This document shows, piece after piece, positions 54,747 through 59,012 of a DNA stretch of 64,000 bases. The notes below the pieces were generated by a model. That model did not search any database. It was not told the origin of the DNA and saw only the letters and a list, made by a program, of their open reading frames with translations. Every line of letters begins with the position of its first letter. The first letter of the stretch is position 1. Made by a program: the position numbers and the translations under genes. Location: assembly GCA_016699465.1 (NCBI GenBank), contig CP064977.1, positions 138,096 to 202,095 on the forward strand, read 5' to 3'. Source of the DNA: Candidatus Campbellbacteria bacterium. Its GTDB lineage: Bacteria; Patescibacteriota; Minisyncoccia; Phycocordibacterales; EsbW-18.

Positions 54747-57043
54747 TTGGCCACATGCACTGCTTCATCAAACGAAACAGACAACAATTGTGAAATGGCA
54801 TCGGCTCCCATAGTGATTCCGTAAAGCACTCCTGCCCGAGACATTGTTTCACGATTGTGCGTGATCAAGATAAGCTGTGTTTTCTTTGCAAGATTTTCAA
54901 TCATATCTCCATAGCGCTTCGAGTTTGCTTCATCGAGCGCCGCGTCTGTTTCGTCCAAAATAATGAATGGTGGAGGATTTACTTGAGACATTGCAAAAAT
55001 AAGTGCAATCGATGTAAGCGCACGCTCCCCTCCTGAAAGCATTTCCAAACCATGCACTTTTTTACGCGGAAGAGAAATATGAATTTCAACACCTTCAAGC
55101 ACTTTTTCTTCACGCGACACCTCACTGTCGACATGATTATCATCAGTAAGCCCCTCGATATCGGTGTCTCGTTTTGCCTTTCGAATTTCACGAACAACCT
55201 CAAGTGACGCACTTCCACCATTAAACATGAGTGAGAAAAATTCAGAAAACTGCTCGTTTATTTTTTTGATACCTTCAGCAAATTCACGCGCAAGTGTTTC
55301 TTCCAAATCAGCAATCAAAGCACGCAATGACACCGCAGATTGTTCCAAATCAGCAACTTCTTTTTCCAAAAATGCATCTCGTTGTGAAACCTCTTCAAAT
55401 TCTTTGACGATTTCATCACCACCTCCACTTCCTGCATCCTCCAAGCGAACTTTTGTACGTTCAATTTGTCGCTTGCGTTCGTGTTGTTCACTACGATCTT
55501 CTACAATTCCACTCTCGGCAAGTGCAGTAGACAAATCATCAAATCGAACCGCCTCAACACCCACTAGTGCACCCGCTTCAAGTAAATCACGTTTGTATTC
55601 CTCTTCTTCCAACTGGTAGGTATTTTTTTCACTCAGCAATGCTTGAATACGCATACGCACTTCTTGTTGTTCATTTGAAAGTGTAAAAATACGTCGTTCC
55701 ATTTCACGTCCCGAGTGCATGTCTGATTCGATTGTTTGTTGAATACGTCTGTATTCGAGAGCACACTCTTGCTCTTCTTTTTCTAGACGTAAACGCTCTT
55801 CTTCACGAGCCTGTGTATCACTTTCAAGTTGTGTAAGACTGTCGCGAACCTCCTGAATATCTTCATTGTGTACTGCTTCTCCACGAATGGTGTTCATAAA
55901 CTCAGACACGAGCGTTTTGATATCACCGAGTGCTTTTTTGAATTCTGTTGGATTATTTTGAGAGAGAGCGCTGTCTATCAAACGCCCCAAAGTTACCGTC
56001 ATTGAAGATACCGATAGAAACGGCACTGTTTTATGCGCTTCTTCCGATTGTTTGCGTTCCTCTTTTGCAAGGAGTGAACGAAGTGCAGAAATTTCTCCTT
56101 CAATGCGTCCGATATCTCGCACCGCCGCGTCTTTCTTTTCTCGCACACTGCGCATTTTTTCTTCCGACACTAGCAATGCATCCGACGTCACGTCTTTTTG
56201 AGAAAGTTTTTGCAATTCTTCTCGTGCATGAGCAATATCCTTTTGTAATTGCTCCATACGACTTTCTTGAGGAGAGAGTTCGTGTGTGATACGTGCAAGG
56301 GTGGAATCAAGGTATGCTTTTTCACGAGCAAAATATTCTCGATACGCTTGTTTCAAATCAAGAGCTAATTCACGTGCCTTCTCTACCTTTGCAACCTGTT
56401 TTTTTAAAAATGCCAGGTGTGGCTTAAGTTCACGGCGAATACTTTCAACCTTCTCAAGGTTTTCTTGTGTCTTCTCAAGTTTGTGCTCACTCTCTTCTTT
56501 TTTGTAATGGTAAATTTTAAGTCCAAGTGCATCTTCAACCATCCCTTTACGTTCGCGGGCATTCACCGACAAAATCCTGTCAGCCTCACCTTGCGAAATA
56601 ATATGGTGACCCGAAGCTCCAATGTGTGCACCAGAGAGAAGCTCGATGGTGTCTTTCAATCGAACCACAGATCCATTGAGACGATACTCACTCGTTGCAT
56701 CACGATGGATAATGCGCTCAAGGGCAACTTCGTCAAAGTCTATTCCAAAAAGTCGACCTGACTCTGTTGCATTTCCCATCGTTGTGTTATCAAACACCAA
56801 CTTCACATGCGCCCGATTGCTTCGCGGCACAGTCTTTGAACCATTCCAAATAAGATCTTCGGTGCGTTTTCCACGCATTGATTTGATTGACTGCTCACCA
56901 AGAACAAACCGAAACGATTCGGCTATGTTTGATTTACCAGAACCATTTGGACCAACAATGGCGGTAATAGGTGTTGTAAATTCAAGCGACGCTTTTTTGG
57001 CGAACGATTTGAATCCGGAAAGTTCTAGAGATTTGAGATACAT
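54743..57043 (-). CDS. smc: SMC-family chromosome condensation ATPase, compact 766-aa form
   Basis: N-terminal FKSFA ... IVGPNGSGKSNI Walker A; C-terminal LSGGERALTSIALIFA signature plus Walker B ILDETDAALD. Confidence 0.85.
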   Translation of the reverse strand: MYLKSLELSGFKSFAKKASLEFTTPITAIVGPNGSGKSNIAESFRFVLGEQSIKSMRGKRTEDLIWNGSKTVPRSNRAHVKLVFDNTTMGNATESGRLFGIDFDEVALERIIHRDATSEYRLNGSVVRLKDTIELLSGAHIGASGHHIISQGEADRILSVNARERKGMVEDALGLKIYHYKKEESEHKLEKTQENLEKVESIRRELKPHLAFLKKQVAKVEKARELALDLKQAYREYFAREKAYLDSTLARITHELSPQESRMEQLQKDIAHAREELQKLSQKDVTSDALLVSEEKMRSVREKKDAAVRDIGRIEGEISALRSLLAKEERKQSEEAHKTVPFLSVSSMTVTLGRLIDSALSQNNPTEFKKALGDIKTLVSEFMNTIRGEAVHNEDIQEVRDSLTQLESDTQAREEERLRLEKEEQECALEYRRIQQTIESDMHSGREMERRIFTLSNEQQEVRMRIQALLSEKNTYQLEEEEYKRDLLEAGALVGVEAVRFDDLSTALAESGIVEDRSEQHERKRQIERTKVRLEDAGSGGGDEIVKEFEEVSQRDAFLEKEVADLEQSAVSLRALIADLEETLAREFAEGIKKINEQFSEFFSLMFNGGSASLEVVREIRKAKRDTDIEGLTDDNHVDSEVSREEKVLEGVEIHISLPRKKVHGLEMLSGGERALTSIALIFAMSQVNPPPFIILDETDAALDEANSKRYGDMIENLAKKTQLILITHNRETMSRAGVLYGITMGADAISQLLSVSFDEAVHVAK

Positions 57044-57161
57044 CCCGTTAGAGGCAGATCGCGATCCGTATTAATCTGCGCATCATTACTGAAACTTATA
57101 AAACTTCTTTATCCAATCTTTTTGTGATATCCCTAGAAGCGATCGCGGCTTCTAATGGGAT
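57042..57161. repeat. Copy 1 of a ~120-bp element with 14-bp terminal inverted repeats (atcccgttagaRgc ... gcttctaaYgggat) abutting the smc start codon
   Basis: Alignment with 58894-59012; both termini and an internal gcagatcgcgatc-N7-atctgcg hairpin are conserved, the centre is divergent. Confidence 0.8.
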
Positions 57162-57227
57162 ACATACACGTTATCGATAAGGCAGTCTTTATTATCGCAA
57201 ATAATTTTCTTTTATGCCAACGGAAAT

Positions 57228-57254
57228 GCCGGCCGAGGGACTCCCTCGGCCGGC
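57228..57254. terminator. GC-rich hairpin gccggccgagg/cctcggccggc after the small minus-strand gene; followed by an ATAAGCTAACAAG motif
   Basis: 11-bp stem with a 5-nt loop; no clean U-tract. Confidence 0.4.
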
Positions 57255-57263
57255 CAACATAAG

Positions 57264-57566
57264 CTAACAAGAACGATAGAACGTCATGCGATGCGCCCCA
57301 CAGTCACAGCAATGCACCGTAGTTTCTCGTGCCCCCACCTTTCGATAGGCGATGTGAGCATGAGCACACTGGTTGATGTGTCCCTGCCACAAGAGCTGCA
57401 TAATCATTATCTTCTTCTTGAGAAAAACAATCAGCTCGAGAAAGAGGAATGCGGTAATGAAATACCGAAGCAGTTTACCCTGTAACCCCGTCAACACCTC
57501 AATAGAGTTCTTCAGTGATAACGCCTCGTCACTGACAGTAGTCCGAAACTTCTGCGAATTGGACAT
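57264..57566 (-). CDS. Small hypothetical protein with a hydrophobic core and a Cys/His-rich C-terminus (HCCDCGAH)
   Basis: AAAGGAG SD 5 nt before the second ATG; 100 aa. Confidence 0.35.
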   Translation of the reverse strand: MSNSQKFRTTVSDEALSLKNSIEVLTGLQGKLLRYFITAFLFLELIVFLKKKIMIMQLLWQGHINQCAHAHIAYRKVGARETTVHCCDCGAHRMTFYRSC

Positions 57567-57707: not shown

Positions 57708-57944
57708 ATGGGCACCCATCAAAAAGTCGATGTTTCAGCACTTCGTACGGATGTGTTAGAGGAAGTGAAGAGCACCCTTCGTCTCACCCACTGCCCGAAG
57801 TGTGGTAACGGCATGGATTCGGACACCTGCTCTCTTGGTGTCGAAATTCAACGACCAGATAACGATTCCTTCGGTAACACCCAGAGCAAGTGGAAAACTT
57901 GTCCAGCGTGTCAGCTCGTTTGGCAACTGAAGCTTTGCAACTAG
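57708..57944 (+). CDS. Small zinc-ribbon protein (CPKC ... CPAC)
   Basis: 78-aa ORF, AAGGG RBS, + strand terminator at 58136. Confidence 0.4.
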   Translation: MGTHQKVDVSALRTDVLEEVKSTLRLTHCPKCGNGMDSDTCSLGVEIQRPDNDSFGNTQSKWKTCPACQLVWQLKLCN

Positions 57945-58135
57945 ACCAATGAAAGAGGCGACGGTATGGTTACCGGAGAAGGATACCTGCTGAGTTTGTA
58001 CGCCTTCAGTAACTGTTACTGTCGCTCTTCACTTCTGTACACTGGAGAGGTGTGGAACCGTAGACACGGTTTGATTATTGAGGATAGTAAGCGTGGACAC
58101 GGACGTCTTCCTTTCTAGTTCCTTTCTAGAACGCA

Positions 58136-58170
58136 CGAGGCACCTTCCTTACTGGGATGGTGCCTTTTCA
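58136..58170 (+). terminator. Hairpin aggcacc/ggtgcct plus TTTT
   Basis: 7-bp stem with a 14-nt loop. Confidence 0.4.
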
Positions 58171-58199
58171 CATACTTGTATAGAAATATATTAAAAAAC

Positions 58200-58895
58200 T
58201 TATCGTGCCCATCCTTTTGCGGTAAGCGCATTTTGTGCCGCTTCTTGTTCAGCTTCTTGTTTTGATTTTCCATCACCGTGCGCAATCTGTACGTCTTTCA
58301 AAAAGACACCGACAGTAAATTTTTTATCGTGGTCAGGACCTTCTTCATTAAGCGTTTCATATGAAGGTGTCACACCTGTTTTATCTTGTGCAAGCTCTTG
58401 AAAACGACTCTTCGCATCTCTCCACAAGTGCTTGTTCACAATGTCGTCAGTTAATGGAAGTAATGCACGTTGTACAAACTGTTGTGCAACAGCATACCCA
58501 CCATCAAGAAACAGTGCGCCCACAAGAGCTTCAAATGCATTCGCAAGAATATACTGTCGCGCACGGCCAATATCCTTTGCTTCACCTTTTGAAAGTAACA
58601 AAAAATCATTCACACCCAATTCCATGGCAACCGTTGCAAGTGTTGAGGTGTTTACAAGGCCTGCACGATATGAGGTTAAATCTCCCTCCGTCTTTTTTGG
58701 ATATTTTGCAAATAAAAATTCTGTGGAAATAAGTTCAAGCACCGCGTCACCTAAAAACTCAAGACGTTCATTATGCTGTCCCGTGTGTGCGTGTGACTCA
58801 TTGATATATGAGCGATGAGTCAGTGCTGTCACTAATATTTTTTCATCGGCAAAGGTGTGTCCGAGTTTTTCTTGTAAGGGTTCCAAGTTTTTCAT
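58200..58895 (-). CDS. rnc: Ribonuclease III
   Basis: RNase III signature ERLEFLGDAVLE, C-terminal dsRBD. Confidence 0.93.
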   Translation of the reverse strand: MKNLEPLQEKLGHTFADEKILVTALTHRSYINESHAHTGQHNERLEFLGDAVLELISTEFLFAKYPKKTEGDLTSYRAGLVNTSTLATVAMELGVNDFLLLSKGEAKDIGRARQYILANAFEALVGALFLDGGYAVAQQFVQRALLPLTDDIVNKHLWRDAKSRFQELAQDKTGVTPSYETLNEEGPDHDKKFTVGVFLKDVQIAHGDGKSKQEAEQEAAQNALTAKGWAR

Positions 58896-59012
58896 CCCGT
58901 TAGAAGCAGATCGCGATCTCCAGAAATCTGCGTTGTGTATTAAGATTAATAAACATTTTTGTATATCGATTTTTTAACAAACCTATTAAGCGATCGCGGC
59001 TTCTAACGGGAT
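58894..59012. repeat. Copy 2 of the ~120-bp TIR element, abutting the rnc start codon
   Basis: Perfect 14-bp TIRs atcccgttagaagc / gcttctaacgggat. Confidence 0.8.

Follow-up and report, generated by a model that had tools for sequence, protein, structure and literature searches.

Why should the start codons of two neighboring genes, rnc and an smc-like gene, each coincide with the end of the same short inverted-repeat element? The window in which they do so, i.e. the whole 64-kb stretch of DNA analysed here, carries both genes on its minus strand, with rnc (58200..58895) encoding an RNase III of 231 aa (PF14622, PF00636 and PF00035; E = 9e-39), identical to a protein assigned to Candidatus Campbellbacteria, and the smc-like gene (54743..57043) encoding an SMC_N protein of only 766 aa (E = 4e-61). 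A sequence-only reading had drawn attention to the two repeats, and both proved to be real. On the minus strand, which is the sense strand for both genes, a 117-nt copy (59011..58895; TCCCGTTAGAAGC...GCTTCTAACGGGA) ends on the first base (A) of the rnc start codon (58895..58893), and a 118-nt copy (57160..57043; TCCCATTAGAAGC...GCCTCTAACGGGA) likewise ends on the first base (A) of the smc start codon (57043..57041). Searching the 64 kb with the 14-mer arm, allowing 0-1 mismatch, recovered just four sites, all belonging to these two copies, which have terminal inverted repeats of 13-14 bp and are 85% identical over 40 nt, at a spacing of 1852 nt. The internal palindromes GCGATCGC, GATCGCGATC and GCAGAT..ATCTGC that had been described are seen in both. 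The rnc copy has a perfect outer repeat (14/14), an inner stem of 7 bp (CGCGATC/GATCGCG) and a 4-nt bulge, ATCT, on its gene-proximal arm, and folds as RNA at -40.5 kcal/mol (z = -5.9); the smc copy has two outer-arm mismatches (A.C on the sense strand) and folds at -33.8 kcal/mol (z = -1.45). The stability of the smc copy is unexceptional. The folds do place the A and U of the ATG in the outer helix, as had been proposed.

A feature that had been overlooked is a direct repeat, composed of the start codon and two further bases, which brackets both copies: ATGAA at rnc (minus strand, upstream 59016..59012, downstream 58895..58891) and ATGTA at smc (minus strand, upstream 57165..57161, downstream 57043..57039), with the downstream unit being the true start of the gene in each case. 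As this flank repeat begins with the start codon, a second ATG (hereafter ATG1) is present upstream of each element. The DNA of ~1 kb between rnc and the smc copy (57166..58199, assigned to no strand) is not part of the element; it is variable and missing in relatives. In the window organism, a TAnAAT motif precedes the ATG of most genes by 4-9 nt, which gives these genes a leaderless appearance.

The sequence-only reading had favored a dedicated 5' leader common to rnc and smc, with a stem cut by RNase III, so that rnc would be autoregulated and smc regulated together with it. In Escherichia coli, rnc is autoregulated via a leader stem-loop, and the rnc copy resembles it in placing a stable stem-loop, potentially cleavable by RNase III, immediately before rnc: its very stable 13+7-bp stem incorporates the first two bases of the start codon (A and U) and is of a length suited to the enzyme. 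However, in contrast to that leader the present element is mobile, not specific to rnc and missing at orthologous loci. Relatives whose RNase III is 74-92% identical retain the nusB-rnc-smc gene order, yet they lack both copies: the sites are empty in four of them (RNase III identity 92, 83, 78 and 74%), the rnc copy is missing in L085-L089, and in L085 the empty rnc site reads ..ACGT ATGAAAGAT while smc begins ATGTATCTCAAATC without an element. These empty sites refute a conserved rnc/smc leader device. Moreover, the same element precedes ~150 other gene families in other genomes, the stability of the smc copy is ordinary, the centres of the two copies are unrelated (66% identity only), and any effect of RNase III would be generic to every copy. 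This leader thus has very little chance of being the correct explanation, and it is instead plausible that cleavage of the 13+7-bp bulged stem by RNase III, a candidate activity, is common to all copies rather than peculiar to rnc. The further claim that the element constitutes the entire 5' leader is not supported: the promoter-like sites detected by a promoter scan all lie upstream of the elements, and neither window copy contains one.

The search for further copies that had been suggested recovered hundreds, at unrelated genes of many CPR genomes, and their target-site duplications at these unrelated loci likewise speak against a leader specific to rnc and smc. The left-arm 19-mer occurs in 83 GTDB genome stretches, mostly from CPR bacteria of many classes and with up to at least 14 per genome, and a pattern excluding the family of the window copies revealed sister subfamilies in at least 120 metagenome stretches. 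The element, ~100-125 nt long and with conserved 13-bp termini (TCCCGTTAGAA../..TTCTAACGGGA), belongs to a large superfamily of CPR/Patescibacteria. In 1.46 Mb of fetched loci from CPR genomes and metagenomes we counted 216 physical elements, in 201 of which (93%) an ATG is flush with exactly one element end and nearly always opens a real gene. The orientation relative to the gene is fixed, the gene's own ATG (ATG2) is chosen as the start by independent gene callers, and the downstream ORFs (median 213 aa) represent 153 blastp families, with L9, L36, L2, SSB, SecY, YchF and SMC (three times) among them. The SMC starts in L122 and L200 bear elements of other subfamilies. The targets comprise stand-alone, leaderless-type and SD-led genes as well as ATGA stop/start overlaps within operons; a same-strand gene ends no more than 20 nt upstream of 69 of 174 elements (40%, operon-internal), and 21 operon-internal elements sit exactly on ATGA overlaps, where the upstream stop and the downstream start both remain intact after insertion.

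Most copies possess a perfect flank duplication of 4-5 bp (153 of 201 show flank repeats in the 5-nt register with at most one mismatch), and these repeats covary with the second codon of the host gene (ATGAA 108, ATGGA 20, ATGAG 15, ATGTA 4 and ATGCG 3). In about 93% of copies the duplicated bases are the ATG and one or two that follow it, so that the hairpin directly abuts the gene's own ATG at its 3' foot. Within the restored loci, ATGAA is found 2623 times inside ORFs and 533 times in intergenic regions as against 295 times at ORF starts; hence, the pentamer alone is insufficient to generate the start-codon bias, and a WTGA(A/C) sequence preference together with a tolerance filter accounts for part of the precision. 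Near-identical copies are found at unrelated genes (L076/L082 0.97, L161/L169 0.88, L106/L208 0.87).

Across the superfamily the hairpin has a conserved polarity, the 4-nt bulge being on the 3' (gene-proximal) arm in ~91-103 elements versus the 5' arm in ~3. The 13-bp helix is 99% paired with 58 double-change cells, and none of 500 shuffles attained the observed score; the inner stem covaries (CGCGATC versus CGCGGAC), as do the positions adjoining the conserved termini between subfamilies. Non-Watson-Crick terminal pairs are seen in only 7-19% of elements, the centres show near-random similarity, and minimum-free-energy folding leaves the start codon base-paired in 96-100% of elements. A strand-specific G.U signature was not found in the stems (17 G.U-type versus 18 A.C-type), which implies that the helix constraint could be imposed on the DNA ends instead of the RNA.

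The duplicated ATG has a further consequence. In 72 of 150 elements the frame opened by ATG1 is free of stops through the AT-rich centre, whereas the other two frames are open in just 21 and 26 of the same elements; 1000 shuffles give an expectation of 19.2±4.0 (maximum 31), and a hypothetical reversed insertion yields an open frame in 23 of 135. Such frame-specific scarcity of stops suggests that translation goes into the element, not around it. Where this frame is open it closes with a TAA at -7 (4 nt ahead of the gene ATG) or a TGA overlapping that ATG, and 22 of the 24 copies that are in frame with the gene carry an internal stop. From these statistics it is proposed that the native initiation signals of the gene load ribosomes at the upstream ATG copy, that these ribosomes melt the hairpin as they translate into it, and that in the intact design they would terminate at the TAA 4 nt before, or the TGA overlapping, the real ATG and then re-initiate; in a second class a short uORF of 10-18 codons would only unmask the 3' arm. 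The element thus seems to hand ribosomes on to the gene via a short built-in frame. Judged by its sequence, the rnc copy is of the putative relay type: its uORF (minus strand, 58900..59016) is opened by ATG1, has 38 codons (MNPVRSRDRLIGLLKNRYTKMFINLNTQRRFLEIAICF and the stop), spans the whole copy and has its TAA 4 nt ahead of the rnc ATG. The smc copy is of the putative short-uORF type, with a uORF (minus strand, 57133..57165; MYPIRSRDRF and the stop) ending just past the 5' arm. Enrichment of open uORFs is pronounced in subfamily 1 (16 of 21 elements) and in the other subfamilies (36 of 75), whereas the main family, which includes both window copies, is at background level (7 of 32). Early stops occur in about half of all elements and ATG1 is lost in 43 of 193 full-length (95-130-nt) ones (22%), both classes having more arm mismatches, which suggests that the relay may be relevant mainly to young or active copies, without upkeep in place.

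Taken together, these observations probably describe a mobile, MITE-like hairpin with start codons as its nesting sites, which passes ribosomes to the gene by a termination-reinitiation relay, and the window repeats are best read as independent, fairly recent insertions of such a non-autonomous element. A MITE-like element had been entertained before as the alternative to a leader, and the many copies, target-site duplications and empty sites now support it. The accompanying idea, that the pair arose by duplication when a 1-kb cassette inserted between the genes, has to be rejected as the rnc and smc centres are as unlike each other as copies from unrelated genomes, to which each is equally or more similar (0.70-0.73). 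An ordinary DDE transposon does not account for the virtual lack of intergenic copies or for the strict orientation. An autonomous element or a transposase gene with the same ends was not found in the loci surveyed. A Y1_Tnp gene beside mini-hairpins in L192 was considered as the mover, and this lead failed at the other Y1_Tnp loci.

That lead bears on a REPIN-like origin, in which the element would be a doublet of REP-type hairpins and an IS200-like (RAYT/Y1) transposase, present in single copy, would move it in the form of single-stranded DNA. REPINs, reportedly composed of REP sequences that are associated with RAYT transposases, are similar in size and hairpin form, and share with the present element a length of ~100 nt, conserved ends, a variable middle, many copies, the lack of an autonomous version and subfamilies with compensatory changes; the missing autonomous copy would be expected with a stand-alone chromosomal transposase gene, the strict polarity fits a strand-specific mechanism, and in L192 two 37-nt mini-hairpins with the same termini adjoin the Y1_Tnp gene. 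However, each of seven other Y1_Tnp loci (L129, L032, L211, L212, L213, L214, L216) has its own unrelated palindrome, and in none of them does a TCCCGTTAG-type hairpin flank the gene; L129 and L032 have one element each ~1-2 kb from Y1_Tnp, both having been fetched because they bear elements. Further, REPINs lie outside genes, for the most part 3' of them, and show no target duplication, while the present element sits on the ATG, lacks a RAYT-gene link and duplicates 4-5 bp of host sequence; no HUH/Y1 enzyme is known to generate a target duplication copying host sequence. This origin is accordingly very unlikely. Somewhat better placed, albeit still unlikely, is the proposal that transposition spreads the elements and the host then retains them for cis-regulation, as a 'regulon' of hairpins at start codons whose reader might be RNase III, a helicase, an RNA-binding protein or temperature, with useful start-codon copies persisting and others being lost. 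It would account for the extreme conservation of the termini against the near-random centres, the pairing of the start codon, the recurrence of housekeeping and ribosomal genes among the hosts and the start-codon excess beyond the pentamer prediction. Nevertheless, close relatives manage without the element at the same genes, the hosts are functionally heterogeneous, conserved termini are equally expected if only intact-ended copies transpose, and the copies decay, with ATG1 loss being accompanied by more arm mismatches.

Two other explanations were weighed. Without a relay, the element might be bypassed by RNA splicing or processing (with a cut at the 3' foot yielding a leaderless mRNA), by a ribosome shunt or hop between the two identical AUGNA sites, or by native SD or stop signals acting across the hairpin once it is looped out, a situation known from phage T4 genes 38 and 25. 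The identical 5-nt sequences at both feet of a stable hairpin, the leaderless appearance of most genes of the window organism and the presence of elements lacking a full-length uORF (half of the total) in essential genes are consistent with this. Yet, no ribozyme or intron match was obtained in Rfam, the centre varies too much to contain a catalytic core, looping out would place the two ATG copies out of register, and the stops are scarce in one frame only, making any such bypass highly improbable. That the element supplies the downstream gene with a promoter, either portable or switchable by inversion, is suggested by the AT-rich centre between inverted repeats immediately upstream of genes, and by a recurrent TATAAT-N6-8-GCAGATC in one subfamily. 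Against it, -10-like hexamers number 227 versus 235 on the two strands without a sharp position, the scan of the window copies was negative, none of ~100 scorable copies is inverted and 40% are operon-internal; we consider it scarcely credible.

We found no published description of a start-codon hairpin element, but several known systems offer partial parallels to the mobile hairpin favored here. The Correia/nemis elements of Neisseria (~100-155 bp, with 26-bp TIRs, a TA duplication, RNase III-cut transcripts and, in some, promoters) are likewise small, non-coding, multi-copy elements with TIRs, target-site duplication and presence/absence polymorphism, and form long hairpins co-transcribed with neighboring genes, the CPR element being only a plausible RNase III substrate. 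They differ in that the sequences are unrelated and that the CPR element duplicates 4-5 bp rather than TA, resides almost only on start codons in a single orientation, has a frame phased with the duplicated ATG and has no known parent IS. Integron attC sites, including the Vibrio cholerae repeats, are imperfect palindromes of ~60-140 bp that similarly combine conserved ends, a variable centre and polarity-defining asymmetric bulges just upstream of ORFs, and their core GTTRRRY/RYYYAAC is resembled by GTTAGAA/TTCTAAC; however, the order of core sites is reversed in the CPR element, whose copies are dispersed at core housekeeping genes instead of cassette arrays and duplicate host bases. The Rickettsia palindromic elements are reportedly mobile palindromes which, like the present one, are tolerated inside genes of reduced genomes with a sequence compatible with translation, but they insert in frame and join the protein, whereas the CPR element avoids read-through and would be translated solely as an upstream ORF of its own. 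Translational coupling in bacteria includes termination-reinitiation where stop and start overlap (ATGA) or adjoin (TAAnATG), and a uORF can also unmask a start that is otherwise sequestered. This is paralleled by the stops 4 nt before or overlapping the gene ATG and by upstream translation that would melt the ATG-hiding stem, the difference being that here the device is borne by a mobile element and made by start-codon duplication, rather than being an evolved operon feature.

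Re-derivation of the coordinates confirmed the two repeat copies at the starts of rnc and smc, each lying flush with the A of an ATG: on the minus strand the 117-nt rnc copy (59011..58895) ends with the A of the start codon of a gene for a 231-aa RNase III, and the 118-nt smc copy (57160..57043) with that of a gene for a 766-aa SMC-like protein. The arm 14-mer, allowed 0-1 mismatch, occurs only at these four positions in a scan of the 64-kb window. The copies have in common a 40-nt stretch of 85% identity, and the internal palindromes GCGATCGC, GATCGCGATC and GCAGAT..ATCTGC that the sequence-only reading had claimed are present in both. 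Overlooked by that reading was a direct repeat, composed of the start codon and two bases, which flanks each copy (..TTT ATGAA/TCCCG...CGGG/ATGAA AAAC at rnc and ..GT ATGTA/TCCCA...CGGG/ATGTA TCTC at smc), such that an upstream copy of the start codon (ATG1) precedes the element and the real start of the host gene (ATG2) follows it.

All fetched DNA (1.46 Mb) yielded 216 physical elements. Of these, 201 have a flush ATG at one end only, 12 at neither end and 3 at both; start codons, with the duplication, account for 93% of copies. The ORFs behind the flush ATG, with a median of 213 aa, belong to 153 blastp families, near-identical element copies being found at unrelated genes. Recurrent hosts include L9, SSB and a PilB/GspE-like ATPase (5 each), YchF (4), and L2, L36, SecY and SMC (3 each, the window included), and independent gene callers also place the starts of the host proteins at ATG2. 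A flanking 5-nt repeat with at most one mismatch is present in 153 of the 201 elements; another 21 have a 4-nt match. This repeat covaries with the second codon of the host (ATGAA 108, ATGGA 20, ATGAG 15, ATGTA 4, ATGCG 3), indicating that it is a true target duplication, whose length is ambiguous between 4 and 5 bp. The mismatches per duplicated base number 4, 4, 4, 0 and 4, so that ATG1 shows no faster loss than the rest of the duplication.

The surroundings of the targeted start codons are varied. A same-strand gene ends at most 20 nt upstream in 69 of 174 elements; in 21 elements that gene ends with the TGA of an ATGA overlap, and the duplication keeps both stop and start. Elsewhere a -10 box 6-8 nt ahead of the ATG, an SD sequence or neither of them is seen upstream. 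The rare non-ATG insertions have duplications such as TTGA, TTTA, CGTTG and TTTTA, several of them within TTGACA or TTTACA boxes, and the collected sites suggest a target preference of roughly the form WTGA(A/C). Such a preference alone does not account for the siting on start codons: within the restored loci, ORF interiors contain 2623 ATGAA pentamers, the DNA between ORFs 533 and ORF starts 295. Tandem elements sharing one ATGA (L051, minus ~5270-5150; L073; L123, 6131-6369), which are either members of two subfamilies or two near-identical copies, imply that a start codon made by one insertion was targeted again. The closest relative of the window organism holds, just behind RNase HII, a divergent 98-nt member (TCACGTTAGAG..CTCTAACGTGA; L085, 2999-3096) that is inserted into a TTGACA -35-like box and has duplicated TTGA.

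A 19-mer from the left arm of the main family, that of the window copies, has 83 matching stretches in GTDB species genomes. Complete elements make up about 70 of them; their hosts are Paceibacteria, Liptonbacteria, Kerfeld-, Zambryski-, Nomura-, Uhr- and Brennerbacteria, Saccharibacteria and other CPR MAGs, with at least 14 copies in one MAG. A few cyanobacterial and planctomycete matches to the 19-mer are missing the second arm. A pattern for the sister subfamilies, in which the outer 11 nt of each arm were kept and the main family was excluded, recovered at least 120 metagenome stretches, with 83 distinct elements among the matches listed. Viral contigs gave no match to the element, and carriage by phages was rejected on this basis. 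MAGs titled 'uncultured Gammaproteobacteria', CAZZBC01 (L003, L009, L014, L017, L035, L056, L062, L064, L068) and CAZAZU01 (L021, L049, L080), carry many elements; these labels are probably wrong, since Candidatus Falkowbacteria has an entry identical to one of the encoded proteins. A short variant of 80-84 nt, nearly devoid of a centre, is present in CAZAZU01 and two further MAGs.

The element as a whole is 80-125 nt long, has ends of the TCCCGTTAGAA type and an A-rich, poorly conserved centre, and its sole coding content is a non-conserved frame of 10-41 codons opened by ATG1 (uORF). Its outer helix of 13 bp (TCCCGTTAGAANN/NNTTCTAACGGGA), in which the search patterns had fixed the first ten positions, is 99% paired over 90 distinct arm pairs and displays covariation: double changes occur at four pairs (58 cells), and the score of 0.150, against 0.058 in shuffles, was reached in 0 of 500 shuffles. 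In about half of the elements pairing continues in a 7-bp inner stem, which is compensatory across subfamilies (CGCGATC/GATCGCG, CGCGGAC/GTCCGCG, CGCGGTC/GACCGCG). A 4-nt bulge (ATCT, TCCT or ACCT) lies in the gene-proximal arm of ~91-103 elements and in the other arm of ~3, giving a polarity of ~35:1. The non-Watson-Crick pairs of the sense strand are of the G.U type in 17 cases and of the A.C type in 18, so that the constraint on the helix is not assignable to RNA over DNA ends, and a strand-specific RNA signature in the stems was rejected. An internal GGGA motif is present in 45 of 193 elements versus 1 of 193 at the mirror position, but a general model of alternative hairpins acting as a switch was also rejected, the longest local helices being no better than those of shuffles. 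No Rfam model, be it of a riboswitch, ribozyme, intron or leader, matched the elements at E <= 10 in the region or at the gathering score in the window and four loci.

In six loci, L012, L030 (5265-5459), L043, L045 (4924-5155), L051 (minus ~5620-5270) and L052, a second small insert of ~115 nt, ~210 nt or a 29-nt palindrome lies within the element itself. Five of these loci have it at one spot, the 4-nt bulge (GATCGCGATC/../TCTGC), with an apparent duplication of TC; the 29-nt palindrome of L052 lies 3 nt further along, behind ATCTGC. The composite of element and nested insert has itself transposed (L012 = L045), and the nested inserts gave no Rfam match.

The sequence-only reading had favoured a leader controlled by RNase III and shared by rnc and smc. 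In E. coli, autoregulation of the rncO type proceeds by RNase III cleavage that lowers the stability of the rnc mRNA, and as RNA the rnc copy is predicted to form a 14-bp outer stem, followed by a 4-nt bulge AUCU in the 3' arm and a 7-bp inner stem, of which the 13+7-bp stem is a candidate RNase III substrate. The folding check went in favour of this proposal for the rnc copy, which is exceptionally stable (-40.5 kcal/mol, z = -5.9), but not for the smc copy, which has two A.C mismatches and is unexceptional (-33.8 kcal/mol, z = -1.45). Evidence against the proposal comes from four relatives, with RNase III proteins 92, 83, 78 and 74% identical to that of the window, all of which keep the gene order RNase HII-(L32)-nusB/NUDIX-rnc-smc. 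In these (L085, L086, L087, L089) the nusB stop is 4-40 nt from the rnc ATG, with neither the element nor any leader structure of this kind upstream of rnc, and their smc opens with the same ATGTATCT.., again without the element. Thus, both window copies are recent insertions into sites that are cleanly empty in the relatives. This absence in close relatives, which had been named as an observation that would speak against a leader function, together with the presence of the element in front of many unrelated genes, leaves the shared leader unsupported; unlike the rncO leader, the element is not conserved upstream of rnc. For the window itself this means that no special regulatory device links rnc and smc. 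The alternative offered by the same reading, a MITE-like mobile element, is supported by dispersed copies, target duplications and empty sites; the further copies with target duplications at unrelated loci that were named as favouring it are found in many CPR genomes. Its corollary, a common origin of both copies with the 1-kb cassette that lies between rnc and smc and is missing in the relatives, does not hold: the centres of the copies are only 66% identical (random element pairs: mean 54%, 95th percentile 64%), and each is 0.70-0.73 similar to copies of unrelated genomes, equal to or above their mutual similarity, indicating that they are not duplicates of each other.

Of 150 elements, 72 keep the frame opened by ATG1 free of stops across the AT-rich centre, against 21 and 26 for the other two frames and an expectation of 19.2 ± 4.0 (maximum 31) in 1000 shuffles of the centres; hypothetical backward insertion of the same elements leaves it open in 23 of 135. 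Full uORFs end in the right arm, either with a TAA 4 nt before the gene ATG (..TTC TAA CGGG ATG) or with a TGA overlapping it (..GGA TGA). Where ATG1 is in frame with the gene (24 cases), an internal stop is present in 22 and read-through in 2. The first-stop rate per three codons falls from 13-17% early in the element to 2-6% later, which points to a division into short uORFs of 10-18 codons and full relays of 35-41 codons. The rnc copy carries a relay uORF of 38 codons (59016..58900, minus) and the smc copy a short one (57165..57133, minus; MYPIRSRDRF and stop) with a weakened stem. Subfamily 1 (16/21) and the mixed 'other' class (36/75) show a strong enrichment of open frames; the main family of the window copies (7/32) is at background. 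Arm mismatches affect 10% of early-stop elements and 19% of those with a lost ATG1 versus 7% otherwise; hence the open frame may be a mark of young or active copies rather than of upkeep in place. Mechanistically, ribosomes recruited by the native signals of the gene would initiate at ATG1 and melt the hairpin during translation; those on a relay uORF would then terminate beside the real ATG and re-initiate there, and the short uORFs would merely unmask the 3' arm. The stop/start geometry is the same as in ordinary translational coupling.

An oriented promoter carried by the element was rejected: a promoter scanner found no internal promoter in the two window copies, and -10-like hexamers in the elements show neither strand bias nor a sharp position. 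An invertible promoter (inverton) is likewise rejected by the polarity of ~35:1, with no inverted copy found. As for the genes of the window organism, most have no SD and a TAnAAT-like box 4-9 nt before the ATG (for example upstream of 30358, 31033, 18392-19624, 8536-9621 and 25810-27120), a pattern suggesting predominantly leaderless mRNAs in this Campbellbacteria genome.

MITEs are elements below ~500 bp without a transposase gene, with terminal inverted repeats, target-site duplication, dispersed copies and a related autonomous IS. The present element shares with them the short length, the terminal inverted repeats, the duplication of host sequence and the dispersed copies with empty sites. 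An autonomous form with the same ends was looked for in 211 loci (1.46 Mb) and the window and not found; every unpaired or distant arm pair considered as a parent proved to be a chance match, a nested insertion or a neighbouring element. A RAYT-type mobiliser was suggested by L192 (minus, first 130 nt of the reverse complement), where two 37-nt mini-hairpins TCCCGTTAGAGGTTTGTCCACAAACTCTCTAATGGGA with the family termini and almost no centre adjoin a Y1_Tnp (IS200-like) gene. This family, of ~220 aa, is very abundant in CPR, and in seven further loci (L129, L032, L211-L214, L216) its genes are bracketed by their own perfect 30-45-nt palindromes in a REP/RAYT-like manner; a hairpin of the element type stands beside the gene in none of these seven, only in L192, and the IS200-like transposase was rejected as mobiliser since the seven are each flanked by unrelated palindromes. 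REPINs of the REP-RAYT system are extragenic, without target duplication, and have a cognate Y1 HUH gene flanked by the same repeats. Like REPINs the element has no known autonomous form, but it duplicates host sequence, sits on start codons and has no link to a RAYT. By analogy with Correia elements, it would be expected to form RNase III-sized hairpins in transcripts. Rickettsia palindromic elements are inserted in frame and translated as part of the host protein; the element is similarly tolerated inside genes of reduced genomes, but avoids joining the protein (in-frame read-through in 2/24, with gene callers using ATG2). Integron attC sites have the order R''(RYYYAAC)...R'(GTTRRRY) in cassette arrays next to intI, whereas in the element the order is reversed (GTTAGAA...TTCTAAC) and the copies are dispersed at core genes.

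Taken together, these observations support a CPR-wide, polar, MITE-like mobile hairpin with start codons as its targets and a phased upstream ORF of its own. Bacterial mobile elements are normally excluded from genes, and landing in one orientation on the first bases of ORFs, in essential genes of genomes that rank among the smallest known, would be an unusual solution to the conflict of parasite and host; the element appears to survive by duplicating the start codon and by means of a phased frame that ends beside the real ATG. Such nesting in start codons is not known to us from any mobile element, and no published description of this one, its arm sequences included, was found in the literature. 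It is conceivable, if rather improbable, that it actively recognises translation-initiation sites rather than a DNA word, with integration coupled to initiating ribosomes or the expressome or via an RNA-level step, and thereby defines a new 'start-codon-nesting' class, a device that CPR perhaps recruited for global translation control. If true, the hairpin and the phased relay ORF would hide the element from expression under leaderless, SD-led or coupled initiation. To our knowledge there is almost no experimental work on SD-less initiation in CPR, for which, along with termination-reinitiation, the element would offer a natural portable test-bed. It also places an upstream ATG and a 10-40-codon ORF before hundreds of CPR genes, with consequences for annotation, and is a marker of recent gene flow among CPR lineages.

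Several other features of the window were observed. The variable DNA of ~1 kb between rnc and the smc element (57166-58199) has a higher GC (0.48-0.53) and contains a 12-bp GC-rich hairpin (57228-57254), a 105-aa ORF (57264-57581, minus) and a zinc-ribbon-like ORF of 78 aa (57708-57944, plus); relatives have at this spot either nothing or different small ORFs. Between the nusB stop and ATG1 of rnc there are ~100 extra nt (59017-59112), missing in relatives, which hold repeats of the GTAGTATGTAGAATGTAGAA type, with a similar inverted stretch near 53558-53589. Neighbouring paralogous genes, two or three in number (minus; ORFs 61724-62560 and 62564-63712), contain long arrays of 63-nt (21-codon) tandem repeats over 61683-64000 and have almost identical upstream regions (catataacaatcaaac..ccccctaacc ATG), and a 622-aa ORF made of ~150-nt repeats (51589-53457, minus) gave weak zinc-finger-like Pfam matches. 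A SAM riboswitch (RF00162, 53.8 bits) is located at 2612-2718 (minus), upstream of a minus-strand gene. Finally, the SMC-like protein (54743-57043, minus) is only 766 aa long and its counterparts in relatives 764-766 aa, typical bacterial SMC proteins being far longer.
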